Assembly (NCBI GenBank): GCA_963747845.1
Contig: CAVVGR010000007.1
Span: forward strand, 194,025-258,024
DNA: 64,000 nucleotides
Source of the DNA: an uncultured delta proteobacterium
Lineage (GTDB): Bacteria; Desulfobacterota; Binatia; Binatales; Binataceae
Direction of reading: 5' to 3'
Part shown: positions 38,252 to 42,576 of the stretch, piece by piece
Numbering within the stretch: position 1 is the first letter of the stretch
Layout of the letters: each line of letters opens with the position of its first letter
Notes under the pieces: generated by a model
What the model saw: only the letters and a program-made list of their open reading frames with translations
Database searches by the model: none
Told to the model about the DNA's origin: nothing
Program-made: the position numbers and the translations under genes

Positions 38252-41200
38252 TCACGCCTTGGCGTGGCCGCGCGGCAGCTCCGGCGAACGATCGCTCCGC
38301 GAGCGCGCGTGCTTGACCGGTTCGACGCCGTTGGAAGCTTGCGTCGATTGCGTCGAGGCACGAGGCAGGCGTGAGCGCGATCCGGATAGCGCGATGACCG
38401 CCGCGCGCATCATGTCGGAAATCTTGCGATACGCACCGGCGCCTTCGGAACTCGCCGCCAGCTCGCGCAGCTCGTCCGCCGTAATCGCGCGACCGATGCG
38501 GACTTCCACCGGATGGCGCCGCGGGATGAGACTGCCCTTGCCCATCACGTCATGCGTGCCGCGAATCAGCACCGGCAGCACGTCGCATCGGCTGCGCAGC
38601 GCCAGGAATCCCGCGCCGCTCTTGAACTCGTGGATCTCGCCGTCGGCCGAGCGCGTGCCCTCGGGGAACATCAGCACGCTGCGCCCCTGCGCAAGCTCGG
38701 CCAGCGCGTCTTCGAGCGATTCGAGTTGTGCGCGTTCGCGATCGAACGGCATCAGCGAGGTGAAGTTCGACGCGAGAAACCGCCGCGCCGGCGTGTTGAA
38801 GAAATAATCCCTGGCGGCGAGCACGCGGATGTCGTCGCCGATTGCGCCGAGCGCATGACCGACCAGGCTGAAGTCGAGATGACTCGAATGATTCGCGACG
38901 ACGATGAAGTTGCGATTGACCGGGATGTTGCCGCGCCCCAGAACCTTCGGCTTCAGCCATCCGTCGAAAATCGCGCGCTCTGCTCCTCGGACAGCGAAGC
39001 GGCCGAGCCACTTCAACGGCGCCGGCAGGTGCACGGTATAAGGCTCGGCGAACTTTGCGTACGACGGCATCCGCGGACGAGCGTTGCCGCCCGGCTGCGC
39101 GGCGAGAAGTTGCAGATCGCCGACGGTGCGCACGTCGGAAATTTCCTCCAGCGCTATCTCGCGGCTCGCGCGCTCGCCAATCAGCTCGCCGATTTCCGCA
39201 AGCGCGAGCGAGTCGAGACCCAGGTCCTCGATCAAGCGGGTCGCCGGCGTGATGTTGACCGGCTCGGTGGCGATCAGCGCGAGCGCCTCGGCCAGCCACG
39301 TCTCGACTTCGGAGTTGGCGCTATCGGCGTCGGCGTCGCTCGCGCGAACGTCGAGCATCCGGCGCAGCGTCGCGGCCACGTCGGCGCGTTTGATCTTGCG
39401 GGTGCGCGTGCGCGGCAGTTCGGCGTCGGTGAAGCGCAGGATGCGGATGCGCTTGTGCACGCTGAGTTCGCGCGCGACCTTGTCGAAGTCGCTGCGCAGC
39501 CGATCCTCGACGGCTCGCCGGCTCTCGCCGCGCGCGTACGCGGGCACGACCATCGCCGCAACCTGCTCGCCCTGGCCGACCTTCAAGCCGACCACCGCCA
39601 TCTCCTTGACGTACTGCGAACGGCCGTAAATTTCTTCGAGCTCTTCGATATAGATGTTGTTGCCGCCGGAATCGACGATGACTTCCTTGGCGCGGCCGAC
39701 GATGTACAAACGCCCGTCGTCGTCGAAGCGCCCGAGGTCGCCCGTGTGAAGCCATCCGTCGACGAGAACTTCGGCGGTCGCGGCTTCGTTGCGATAGTAA
39801 CCCGCCATCACGTTGGGCCCGTGCGCTACTATCTCGCCAATCGATCCGGTCGCGGGCGCGAGTTTGATCTCGACGCCGTTCAGCGGTCTTCCCACCGCGC
39901 CGACTTGCAGCGGTTCGTCGGGCCGCGCGACCGCGAGCACCGGCGCACCTTCAGTCAGACCGTAGCCTTCGAGCAGCGGGATGCCGATGTCGTTGAAAAA
40001 CTCGGCGACGCGATGGGGCAGGGCGGATCCGCCGCTGACGGCAAGCCGCAGCCGTCCGCCCAGTGCGGAATGAACCTGGCGGAAAACGATCGAGCCGAAG
40101 TTGAGGCCCGAGTTCGCGTCGAGCCGGCGATTGAGGTCGCGCAGGTTGTCGAAGGCGGCGTGAAAAAACGGACCGCGCGCTTCGACTTCGTCCACGATGC
40201 GCCGATGGACCGCCTCCCACACCGCGGGCACTCCGATCAGCGCGGTCGGGCGCACGTCGGCGAGCGTGCGCGAGAGCGTCTTCGCATCGACTTCGAGCGG
40301 ATAGACGATCGTCGCGCCGCTGGCGAGCGGCAGCAGCATCCCGCAAGTGAACTCGAACGCGTGATGCAGCGGGAGCAGCGACAGGACCACGTCGTCAGCG
40401 CCGAGAATAAAGACGCGCGACAGCATCGCCACTTCGGCGGCGAAGTTGCCGTGCGACAGCATCACGCCCTTGGGCGTGCCGGTGCTGCCGGACGTGAAGA
40501 GGATCGAGGCCAGCGCTTTTCGCTCAGGCGGCGCGGGCGGAGTCTTCGCGTCGCCGCGCAGGATGAACGGACGCGCGAGCTCGGCGAGATCGAGCTCGAT
40601 GAGTTTCGGATAAGCGTCGGCAAGCCCCGCGCCGAGGCGTTGGTGGACCGCGCTCGAGCGCAGCGCAGCCGTGGGCTCGGCGATTTTGCAAAGTGGCGCG
40701 AGCTCTTCGGCGGAAATCAACTGATCGAGCGGCACGGCAATCGCGCCCGCGCACAGAATTGCGAAGTAGCCGAGCACCCAATCGGGCGAGTTCTCGCCTA
40801 TCAGCAGCACGCGGTCGCCAGGCTTGATGCCGCGCGTCGCCAGTAGCAAGGCCGCGCGATGCGCACGGTCGCGCAGCTCGCGATAAGTGGTCGGCGTCTG
40901 CTCGCCCGACGGCCGGCGCGCGATCATCGCAACGCGCGAGCCGTAGCGGTCGGCGGCGCGATCGAGCATGTCGACCAGGCTGCGATGACGCGGCAGCGAC
41001 TTGGCCCGGCCGCGCGTGTGGAGATCGAGCTGCGGGAAGATGTGCCGACGCAGGCCCGGCAAGTGAATGTTGATCCAGTAGTCGCGCCAGTCGATCAAGT
41101 CGGGGCGAAACGGATGATGCTCGGCGTCGGCCGGCTTGAGGCTCGCGTACAGCTCGCGAATATTGGCGCCGTGAAAAGTATAGATGAGCTTCTGGATGTA

Positions 41201-42576
41201 GGGGCGATAGACCTCGACCAGGTCGCGCGCGAGGTCGGTGTTCTCCTTGAATTTGTCGATTGCGCCTTCGATTTTCTTCGCGCGCTGATTTTCTTCGCCG
41301 ACAACGCTGCGCGCGAACGCCGCCGCCTGCTTGAGAATCTGCGGAACCCTGTTGCTGGCGAGGTCGTAAGTGTTCTGAGAGACGACGACCGCTTCCAGAT
41401 GAGGCCCCAACCAGCGCATCGTGCCGCCGTCCTTGCGATGCTCGCGGCGATTGCTGAGCGCAGTCAGCTCGACCAGCCGGCGCATCGGCAGCGGATTCCG
41501 ATCCGAAGTGCAGAGCTGGTAGATGGGCTTGTGCTTGCGTGTGAGCAGCGCGCCGAGAATCGGAATCATCGCATGCGCCGCGAGATCGACCGGGATCACG
41601 TCGAGCACGAGCTCCGCTTTCGCGGGATAGAACCGGTAGCCGCGCCCCGCGAGATAAGTCAGCGGCGCGCTGGTGTTGACGCCCTGGTTCCATCCGGGAA
41701 ACGGATCGCGCAGCGCGCTTTCAATAATTGCCGGACGGACGACCGTGACGTTGAGCGTGTCGCGATGCGCGAGCACGAGCTGCTCGCCGAGGCTCTTGGT
41801 GTAGCTGTACGTGTTGGGCCATCCCCAGGTCTGCGCGCGCTCGCGCCCAACTTCCTTGAGCCGCTCCTCGACCCATTGCTTGCGCCGATGCTCGACCGAC
41901 GACTCGCGCGGCGCGTCAGCGTCGCCGTCGTCGCCACGAAACTCCGCGTGACGAAGCTGATCGCGCGACTCGGCCTGCACGCGCTCGATCGCAGCCAGCG
42001 CGTCGCGAATCTCGCGCTCAAGGCGGAACGACTTGCGCCCGTCCGGGACTCCAGTCCTGCGGGATGTCGTCTTCGTAGCGATGGCCGTCGGCCGCGCCCG
42101 CGACGTAGCACGTCGACACATGCACCATCGCGGCTCCCAGCTTGCGGCAAAACTCGATCACGTTGGCGACGCCGGTCGTGTTGACCTCGATGGCCTTTTC
42201 GAGCGACGCCTCGAAGTTCACGAGGCCCGCGCTATGCACGACGGCGTCGAGAGCTGCCCGGCTTGAACGGCGTCGCATCATCGGCGAGCAGGCCGTTGTT
42301 GGTGATGTCGCCGGGCACGATGACGATCTTTTCTTCGATGTAGCGATCGAACCTGTCGCCGAGATGTTCGCGCAGCGGGCCGAACACCGGCGAGTCGAGA
42401 ATCTCGCGCCGAAAGCGGCCGTTGCTGCTGCGCCGGTCGCCGCGAATCAGCAGGTAGACGCGGTCGAGCTCGGGATGCCATCGCAGGAGGACCGCGAGGA
42501 ACACTTTGCCGAGAAAGCCGGTCGCGCCGGTGAGCAGGATGCGCCGGCCTTTGAAGATCTGCTCGAGCGGCGGCAT
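38252..42576 (-). CDS. multidomain lipid megasynthase: fatty-acyl reductase (SDR-e) - acyl-AMP ligase - acyl carrier domain - 1-acylglycerol-3-phosphate-type acyltransferase (ElbD-like domain set); two apparent frameshifts in the reductase domain
   Basis: ORFs 42232-42738 (start ATG 42576: MPPLEQIFKGRRILLTGATGFLGKV), 42018-42281 (VHSAGLVNFEASL...VHVSTCYVAG) and 38252-42121. Motifs are [82 protein letters not shown] and MFPEGTRS. Confidence 0.85.

Follow-up and report, generated by a model that had tools for sequence, protein, structure and literature searches.

ElbD of Myxococcus xanthus (MXAN_1528, UniProt Q1DC43) is a multidomain protein in which an N-terminal FAR1-like domain is followed by acyl-CoA synthetase (ACS), acyl carrier (ACP), and AGPAT-like acyltransferase domains (PMC9131029). 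It is encoded in the elbA-E ether-lipid cluster (Lorenzen et al. 2014, as summarized in PMC9131029), the products of which are a NAD-epimerase, a HAD protein, a protein of unknown function, ElbD itself, and a second NAD-epimerase (PMC9131029). Reduced clusters retaining elbD and elbB rather than all five genes occur in Poribacteria/Acidobacteriota sponge symbionts and in Acidobacteriota subdivision 4 (preprint 10.64898/2026.06.23.733905, which cites Sinninghe Damste et al. 2018). Here, we analyzed a 64-kb stretch of DNA (hereafter, the window) from Candidatus Binatus (Binatia). Sequence comparisons indicate with high confidence that the region at positions 38252..42576 on the minus strand is a single gene of ∼1,440 codons encoding an ElbD homologue with a putative role in ether-lipid synthesis, and that the two single-base insertions interrupting its assembly copy are assembly errors.

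The assembly presents this region as three minus-strand ORFs (42232-42738, 42018-42281, and 38252-42121). The gene start was set at the ATG at 42576 (MPPLEQ...); sister contigs have a further in-frame ATG 54 nt upstream. An earlier note, made from the bare sequence, had read the region as one polypeptide with the order reductase (R), adenylation (A), ACP, and AGPAT, and had suggested domain mapping as a check. Pfam recovered all four domains in that sequence on the minus strand, the reductase and the acyltransferase included: a FAR-type reductase (NAD_binding_4 plus a Sterile/FAR_C region; 41036..42534), an adenylation/acyl-CoA-synthetase domain (AMP-binding plus AMP-binding_C; 39395..40966) with cores A3, A5, A7/A8, and A10, an acyl carrier domain (PP-binding; 39113..39295), and a PlsC/AGPAT-type acyltransferase domain (38564..38947). 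AMP-binding matched with E = 4.7e-80 and Acyltransferase (PF01553) with E = 7e-24; PP-binding reached 22.4 bits (cutoff, 20.8), and Sterile/FAR_C, at 30.6 bits, fell under its cutoff of 35.4. NAD_binding_4 was divided over the three ORFs (profile positions 1-75, 87-149, and 151-258). Residues 24-532 of an intact sister protein matched the fatty acyl-CoA reductase structure 7eoz_A with E = 1.5e-47, which for a sequence match to the reductase part is far past chance.

All nine motifs quoted in the earlier note were located on the minus strand. The reductase carries the Rossmann motif LLTGATGFLGKV (TGATGFLGK; 42537-42502) and the YxxxK motif YSYTKSLGE (41809-41783). The adenylation domain holds a 12-residue motif (40498-40463), GYGLTEGAP (39967-39941), HTGDLG...GRAKE (39748-39683), and a 10-residue motif (39415-39386). 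Another 10-residue motif, with the phosphopantetheine serine, lies in the carrier domain (39223-39194) and is kept as DSL in Myxococcus, and the acyltransferase contributes the HX4D motif NHSSHLD (38893-38873) and FPEGTRS (38668-38648), both of which are also present in Myxococcus stipitatus ElbD. The catalytic motifs of the gene (GxxGxxG, YxxxK, A-domain cores, DSL serine, HX4D, and FPEGTRS) are thus intact.

As reference for ElbD we used not the M. xanthus protein itself but its M. stipitatus orthologue (P0369), recognized by elbA-E synteny. In that locus (L006), the gene order is Epimerase, HAD, Lar_N, a 1,474-aa protein with NAD_binding_4, Sterile, AMP-binding, PP-binding, and Acyltransferase domains, and Epimerase. 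The intact Binatia protein P0001, which is 98% identical to the window gene, aligned with P0369 over 1,450 columns with 39% identity (E = 0), and the alignment keeps the Rossmann, YxxxK, A-core, DSL, HX4D, and FPEGTRS motifs. When P0369 was searched against the window by tblastn, its residues 4-1460 were covered in three consecutive frames. The Binatia protein, at ∼1,440 aa, is slightly shorter than its M. stipitatus counterpart and shares both the set of four domains and their order with M. xanthus ElbD and its orthologues. The membership in lipid metabolism that had been proposed for the megasynthase is borne out.

Other systems resemble the window protein in part. Carboxylic acid reductases (CARs) likewise unite adenylation, carrier, and NAD(P)H-dependent reductase functions on a single chain and reduce an activated carboxylate, but they are arranged as A-ACP-R, with a C-terminal reductase of the thioester-reductase (TR) type and no acyltransferase, whereas here the reductase is N-terminal and FAR-type and an acyltransferase is present. 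A score of 167 bits against the CAR model NF041592 (cutoff, 1300) indicates that the protein is not a CAR. Aas shares the fusion of a PlsC-type acyltransferase to an AMP-binding acyl-activating domain and the connection to phospholipid metabolism, but it has the order AT-A and lacks both a reductase and an in-cis ACP; scores of 212 and 180 bits against the Aas models NF006386 and NF005291 (cutoffs, 1221 and 1349) likewise separate the window protein from Aas. In eukaryotes, the peroxisomal ether-lipid enzymes FAR1, GNPAT, and AGPS are separate proteins. The window protein has a FAR1-type reductase (NAD_binding_4 plus Sterile) and a GNPAT/AGPAT-type acyltransferase, and the logic of a fatty alcohol plus an acylated glycerone or glycerol phosphate is similar, but the Binatia cluster has no AGPS homologue.

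In both M. stipitatus and Binatia, elbD is preceded by elbB (HAD) and elbC (Lar_N) in the same order and orientation, and the elbB-elbC-elbD order on one strand was found in L006 and in all Binatia loci examined. The elbB homologue of the window (44249..45070, minus strand, as are all genes of the cluster) encodes a HAD-IB family hydrolase with 39% identity to M. stipitatus ElbB (tblastn). The elbC homologue (42621..44228; its N terminus is uncertain in the assembly) encodes a putative LarA-superfamily protein (Lar_N; NCBIfam LarAH14/15/16), and M. stipitatus ElbC matched positions 42624-44165 with 56% identity (tblastn). This protein scored 819 bits against NCBIfam NF052592 (cutoff, 740). The LarA superfamily is marked by an NPN-tethering Lys, a Ni-binding His, and two catalytic His residues; in the window protein the LHRR, GGHKS, and RHHH segments align with LarA His108, Lys184, and His200, while His174 has no aligned His (HMMER match line), and its closest structures, 9q3j and 9q2u, are described as LarA-like NPN-utilizing enzymes.

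The remainder of the cluster differs from the myxobacterial arrangement. The Binatia cluster carries a TetR-family regulator upstream (45072..45740), which is the first gene of the conserved cluster, and three genes downstream, encoding a dual-specificity-phosphatase (DSP)-fold protein (37649..38185) that directly follows elbD and is conserved in Binatia, a CDP-alcohol phosphatidyltransferase related to phosphatidylcholine synthases (Pcs) (36880..37647), and a conserved, Binatia-only protein of 597 aa (p597; 35086..36879). The best PDB matches of the phosphatase were the glucan phosphatases LSF2 and SEX4, that to the PGP phosphatase PTPMT1 being marginal (E = 0.0015). The transferase scored 192 bits against phosphatidylcholine-synthase models, under their equivalog cutoffs of 300 to 440, and a sequence search of the PDB found no relative of it. 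In p597, an FGase/amidase_3-like N-terminal half is followed by a C-terminal half that forms an AttH/25-phosphosteroid-lyase-like double beta-barrel. Neither elbA nor elbE, the NAD-dependent epimerase/dehydratase genes of the M. xanthus and M. stipitatus clusters, is adjacent; ElbA and ElbE had no tblastn match anywhere in the 64-kb window, and neither was found in the flanks of the ∼50 Binatia loci examined. ElbE lies downstream of elbD in most Myxococcota and other loci, and in M. xanthus elbE is reported to be necessary for full ether-lipid production. The missing elbE linkage is a property of the cluster and not of the ElbD protein. No Rfam families or tRNAs were found in the window. The sponge-symbiont and subdivision 4 clusters offer a parallel to this reduction: they too have full-length ElbD homologues outside the Myxococcota and adjoining phospholipid genes, including CDP-alcohol phosphatidyltransferases (preprint 10.64898/2026.06.23.733905).

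Domain content and the published work on M. xanthus ElbD suggest a pathway and a lipid product. A long-chain fatty acid would be activated by the adenylation/ACS domain with ATP, and the acyl group would pass to CoA, to the phosphopantetheine arm that the ACP provides in cis, or to both. At the N terminus, the FAR-type Rossmann domain may then use NAD(P)H to convert the thioester to the fatty aldehyde, possibly to the alcohol, and the C-terminal PlsC/AGPAT domain would acylate an acceptor of the glycerol-phosphate type. ElbD, ElbB (HAD hydrolase), and ElbC (LarA-like) would jointly supply the synthesis of 1-O-alkyl-glycerol lipids, and in Binatia the head group would probably be added by the DSP phosphatase and the CDP-alcohol transferase encoded downstream. 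More speculatively, and with little confidence, the Binatia elb cluster could be a distinct, self-contained variant of the aerobic bacterial ether-lipid pathway in which the DSP, the Pcs-like transferase, and p597 replace elbE, ElbC is a nickel-pincer (LarA-type) enzyme, and ElbC and/or the barrel protein carries out the ether-bond-forming or a stereochemical step.

An ElbD-family enzyme could instead provide fatty aldehyde or alcohol, along with intermediates of the acyl-glycerol type, for a non-ether product in Binatia, such as wax esters, neutral lipids, or a phospholipid of unusual structure. Pontiella carries an ElbD homologue and yet ether lipids were not detected in it (PMC11868695), so that such a homologue does not guarantee ether lipids. 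Moreover, elbE is missing from the Binatia cluster, whose accessory genes are different ones (those for the DSP phosphatase, the Pcs-like transferase, and p597), and the in vitro activities demonstrated for M. xanthus ElbD are those of ACS and ACP only, not of the FAR and AT domains (PMC9131029). Weighing against a non-ether product are the retention of the elbB-elbC-elbD core, in which ElbC is the well-conserved partner noted above, the conservation of every catalytic motif, and the occurrence of full-length homologues in subdivision 4 lineages of the Acidobacteriota, known producers of ether lipids. On balance we regard it as unlikely and favor the ether-lipid role. In the literature searchable here, no paper linked Binatota to ether lipids, and nothing relevant connected DUF2088 or lactate racemase with ElbD or with ether lipids.

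The reading frame of the reductase is broken in the sequence as given, and the split over three frames described in the earlier note was confirmed. It arises at two sites on the minus strand, one with an extra base (42250..42254, ∼42252; CAGC[T]CTCGAC) and the other with an extra C in the run AGT[C]CCGGACGGG (42043..42048, ∼42047). Placed on intact homologues, the three fragments join with zero residues lost, PFKPGS running into LDAVVHSAG at the first break and IPQDWSP into DGRKSFRLEREI at the second. Both extra bases are absent from two 96%-identical contigs. Among 35 aligned Binatia sequences, the insertion at 42252 occurs only in the window (0 of 34 related loci), and that at 42047, in a C/G run, is otherwise found only in the long-read metagenome-assembled genome (MAG) L026; two more long-read MAGs have 1-nt insertions of their own at most 30 nt away. 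Frame-breaking indels affect other genes as well: within the same 24 kb, those for FtsK, a PQQ protein, a beta-lactamase-family protein, an alpha/beta-hydrolase, and AHSA1, and in the rest of the window those for aconitase, UvrC, a TPP enzyme, and a DUF1329 protein, which are also divided between frames. In the frame-corrected elbD, codon differences from the related locus L002 comprise 125 synonymous and 27 nonsynonymous changes; the reductase part accounts for 41 and 9, respectively, a ratio that is the same in the intact neighbors.

The insertions missing in relatives, the window-wide breaks, and the predominance of synonymous substitutions argue for assembly error and not gene decay. Both frame breaks are therefore, by strong inference from sequence, most likely single-base insertion errors of a noisy assembly, probably a long-read metagenome, and the real elbD gene is most likely intact. 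Were the insertions real, they would have killed the reductase and left an A-ACP-AT protein or nothing. Such a pseudogene would be in line with the presence of both insertions in the given sequence, with the natural ElbD-like proteins without reductase (A-ACP-AT, ∼850 to 930 aa) found among the cluster representatives of homologues, and with reported split variants of elbD (preprint 10.64898/2026.06.23.733905). However, the natural splits described in that preprint, in clusters from a different phylum, fall between the R and A domains and not in the Rossmann fold, where both window breaks lie. Also speaking against a pseudogene are the indels in FtsK, UvrC, aconitase, the TPP enzyme, and other genes, the 1-nt insertions that other long-read MAGs have independently in or close to this homopolymer, and the synonymous-to-nonsynonymous ratio, which is equal in the reductase, in the remaining parts of the gene, and in intact neighbors. 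A pseudogene is thus very improbable, and the separate or dead N-terminal pieces contemplated in the earlier note are most likely an artifact of assembly. Decay specific to the reductase was rejected in view of the substitution counts and the broken housekeeping genes across the window. Programmed frameshifting was also considered and rejected: more than 100 homologues have a single reading frame, and both 96%-identical contigs lack the extra bases. For users of such data, long-read MAGs of this Binatia lineage have many single-base indels, which fragment long genes.

The R-A-ACP-AT order is an already known architecture, that of ElbD, and is common in public data. The query for a homologue search ran from the middle of the reductase to the acyltransferase; of the best 150 cluster representatives (50% identity level), at least 42 are proteins of 1,330 to 1,700 aa that match it in one stretch. 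Full-length homologues with names were found in Myxococcus, Corallococcus, Archangium, Planctomycetota, Pyrinomonadales, Polyangiaceae, and Verrucomicrobiota, and the architecture extends over dozens of divergent clusters in Myxococcota, Acidobacteriota, Planctomycetota, and Verrucomicrobiota. The novelty of an N-terminal reductase and the distinctness from ElbD implied in the earlier note, which was uncertain about the order of the ElbD domains, do not hold, and a new megasynthase architecture separate from ElbD, CAR, and Aas can be set aside almost entirely: the domain orders of CAR and Aas do differ and the NCBIfam matches to both are partial and far under cutoff, but the order is identical to that published for ElbD (PMC9131029), the protein is colinear end to end with the myxobacterial orthologue over ∼1,450 residues, the gene follows elbB and elbC homologues in synteny with M. 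stipitatus, and hundreds of intact homologues are already in public databases.

The finding as stated in the earlier note, a known and common architecture with a split that is most likely an assembly error, thus matters little in itself. The Binatia variant of the cluster does add new candidates for proteins that take part in ether formation by the elb route, and if the reading of a variant pathway were true, uncultured Binatota would join the soil producers of ether phospholipids. The universal elbB-elbC-elbD core makes Binatia, which are abundant, uncultured bacteria of soil and peat, candidate bacterial ether-lipid producers, a candidacy that bears on the debated source of alkyl-glycerol and brGDGT lipids.

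On the minus strand, positions 38252 to 42738 contain three ORFs that overlap one another and are each in a different frame (42232-42738, 42018-42281, and 38252-42121). All motifs quoted in the earlier note were found at their positions, and Pfam recovered the reductase, adenylation, carrier, and acyltransferase domains assigned there. NAD_binding_4 ("male sterility"/FAR Rossmann) was divided exactly over the three ORFs (profile positions 1-75, 87-149, and 151-258); after its last piece, the long ORF continues with a weakly matching Sterile/FAR_C region, AMP-binding (E = 4.7e-80), AMP-binding_C, PP-binding, and, as the last domain, a PlsC-type Acyltransferase (E = 7e-24). 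The solved fatty acyl-CoA reductase 7eoz_A matched residues 24 to 532 of the intact sister protein, P0001, nearly end to end (E = 1.5e-47). The same domain order has been published for Myxococcus xanthus ElbD, i.e., an N-terminal FAR1-like domain, then ACS, ACP, and an AGPAT-like acyltransferase (PMC9131029, summarising Lorenzen et al. 2014), and the elbA-E products are, in order, NAD-epimerase, HAD, unknown, ElbD, and NAD-epimerase (PMC9131029). Our comparison protein was the Myxococcus stipitatus orthologue, not M. xanthus ElbD, and was found by using a distant representative as the query. Its locus has the exact elbA-E layout (Epimerase, HAD, Lar_N, a 1474-aa multidomain protein, Epimerase), and the 1474-aa protein (NAD_binding_4/Sterile/AMP-binding/PP-binding/Acyltransferase) is colinear with P0001 (39% identity in 1450 aligned columns) and shares every catalytic motif with it. 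In tblastn searches of the window with the M. stipitatus Elb proteins, ElbB matched 44348-45001 (39%), ElbC matched 42624-44165 (56%), ElbD matched three consecutive frames, and ElbA and ElbE had no match. Published domain order, colinearity, and the ElbB and ElbC matches thus identify the gene, at the sequence level, as an ElbD-family member within an elbB-elbC-elbD core in Binatota.

When 1.84 billion cluster representatives were scanned exhaustively with HMMER, using a query that ran from the reductase's second half up to and including the acyltransferase, the best 150 matches included at least 42 proteins of 1330 to 1700 aa that covered the query in one stretch (33 to 45% identity); A-ACP-AT-only proteins (~850 to 930 aa) were also among the matches. 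Named full-length homologues came from Planctomycetota, Myxococcus, Corallococcus, Archangium, Hyalangium, Melittangium, and Anaeromyxobacteraceae, and species-representative genomes with such homologues included Blastocatellaceae and Pyrinomonadales (Acidobacteriota), Polyangiaceae/Sorangium, Verrucomicrobiota, and Pseudomonadota-labelled MAGs. ElbD has already been used to screen metagenomes, with homologues reported in many phyla (preprint 10.64898/2026.06.23.733905; PMC11868695). Given this distribution and the order in published ElbD, the R-A-ACP-AT architecture is not new, and the novelty implied at first was not borne out.

The three-frame split of the reductase is present in the sequence, as initially described, but is almost certainly artefactual. 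The frame-corrected query retrieved >100 intact proteins (1438 to 1477 aa), of which P0001 was the closest (98% identical) and those with a named source were mostly from Candidatus Binatus or Binataceae; aligned to intact homologues, the three fragments abut with zero residues lost. In a three-way DNA alignment with two P0001-encoding contigs (96% nucleotide identity), the window sequence contains a single additional base at each of positions 42252 and 42047. Among 35 Binatia sequences aligned over 42000-42300, the first insertion occurs only in the window, and the second, in a C/G run, recurs in one long-read MAG alone; two further long-read MAGs show different 1-nt insertions within a few bases of that site. 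Frame-breaking indels also affect the window genes for FtsK, a PQQ-repeat protein, a beta-lactamase-family protein, an alpha/beta-hydrolase, and AHSA1, and the Pfam domains of aconitase, UvrC, a TPP-dependent enzyme, and a DUF1329 protein are each spread over overlapping frames. Apart from AHSA1, these account for the frame-split genes at, e.g., 2785-5548, 15986-17702, 29057-31304, and 58191-60343 (plus strand) and 13150-14547, 47475-48394, 49134-50403, and 50525-52044 (minus strand). Nine other single-base insertions are specific to sister contig L001. Once the frame is corrected, comparison of the window gene with its 96% relative shows 125 synonymous and 27 nonsynonymous codon differences (41 versus 9 in the reductase part, a ratio equal to that of intact neighbours). 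A pseudogene, separate genes, and recoding were set aside, since relatives are intact, indels are window-wide, and the reductase codon ratio is normal. Judged from the assemblies, indel noise of assembly origin is the simplest reading of the frame breaks. The pattern resembles that of a long-read metagenome assembly left unpolished, and "pseudogene" calls anywhere in the window should therefore be distrusted.

Another 1-nt insertion found only in the window sits one base 5′ of the ATG at 42576 (42577-42631, minus strand). In the sister contigs, an in-frame upstream ATG, overlapping the stop codon of elbC, lengthens the protein by ~18 residues (MSSSNGKR...). Both starts are in use among annotated homologues (1438-1442 or 1452-1457 aa), and either candidate ATG may be that of elbD. 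Near the elbC 5′ end, the window has a 1-nt insertion at 44142 (minus strand) relative to both sister contigs. The window ORF has 497 aa and a TTG start, homologues are called at 536-546 aa, and the elbC N terminus is unreliable in this assembly. Elsewhere, an 85-nt intergenic segment between ftsK and lolA (31305-31389, plus strand), absent from both sister contigs, holds a short perfect hairpin (CCTCTCCCT GTAA GGGAGAGG) and may be a small repeat element or terminator. The G+C content of ~8400-11450 is 0.58-0.61, versus ~0.63-0.66 over most of the window; long ORFs with the high third-position G+C that characterises window genes are missing from this region, and a 764-aa ORF (9187-11481, minus strand) had no Pfam match.

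Every Binatia locus examined (~50; ElbD identity, 66-97%) showed the order TetR, ElbB, ElbC, ElbD, DSP phosphatase, CDP-alcohol phosphatidyltransferase, and ~595-aa protein, and elbE was absent from the flanks of these loci. Whereas elbE lies directly downstream in most Myxococcota and related loci, Binatia carry instead the DSP-fold phosphatase and Pcs-like transferase (36880-38185, minus strand). The former is closest to LSF2 and SEX4, DSPs with non-protein substrates; the latter is closest to phosphatidylcholine synthases, scoring well under their cutoffs. Some Binatia have an extra Zn-dependent phospholipase C/S1-P1-nuclease-like gene between elbD and the phosphatase (12351-13391 in locus L003; 12358-13236 in L005). 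These three genes suggest that head-group chemistry is built into the cluster, a variant worth a note. The cluster ends with a conserved, Binatia-only 597-aa protein annotated as hypothetical (35086-36879, minus strand). Its AlphaFold model is of moderate confidence (mean pLDDT, 69; ~75-93 in most 10-residue blocks of the C-terminal half). In Foldseek searches with this predicted model, the C-terminal double beta-barrel resembled 25-phosphosteroid lyase, AttH NE1406, kievitone hydratase, and fungal decalin-forming pericyclases (E = 3.5e-9 to 7e-7; probability, 1.0; target-normalised TM, 0.43-0.57), and the N-terminal half matched an amidase_3/FGase-like fold more weakly. The structural relatives of the barrel are enzymes acting on hydrophobic substrates.

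In M. xanthus, the ACS and ACP activities of ElbD have been demonstrated in vitro, i15:0 aldehyde is elbD dependent, and most alkyl and vinyl ether lipids are lost when elbD is deleted; the FAR activity, the AT activity, and the step that forms the ether are unproven (PMC9131029). By analogy, the window ElbD would convert a fatty acid via acyl-AMP to acyl-S-CoA or acyl-S-ACP, the FAR domain would use NAD(P)H to yield an aldehyde or alcohol, and the AGPAT domain would acylate a glycerol-phosphate-type acceptor, with ElbB, ElbC, and the Binatia accessory proteins completing the backbone and head group. An ether-lipid role of the Binatia cluster is a prediction. Possession of an ElbD homologue does not guarantee ether lipids, since Pontiella has one and ether lipids were not detected in it (PMC11868695); this case and the missing elbE call for caution.

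The elbC homologue (42621-44228, minus strand), of "unknown function" in the ElbD literature (PMC9131029), probably falls in the LarA superfamily. ElbC scored above cutoff on NCBIfam LarAH14/15/16, and its nearest structures were 9q3j and 9q2u ("LarA-like NPN cofactor-utilizing enzyme"). LarA residues His108, Lys184, and His200 have aligned equivalents in ElbC; His174 has none. Conservation is much higher for ElbC than for ElbD, with Binatia-Myxococcus identities of 56% versus 39%; within Binatia, ElbC identity is 83-100%. The searchable literature yielded no paper that mentions DUF2088 or lactate racemase alongside ElbD or ether lipids. Novelty, if any, rests on ElbC as a possible LarA-type enzyme and on the Binatia accessory genes, not on the megasynthase.
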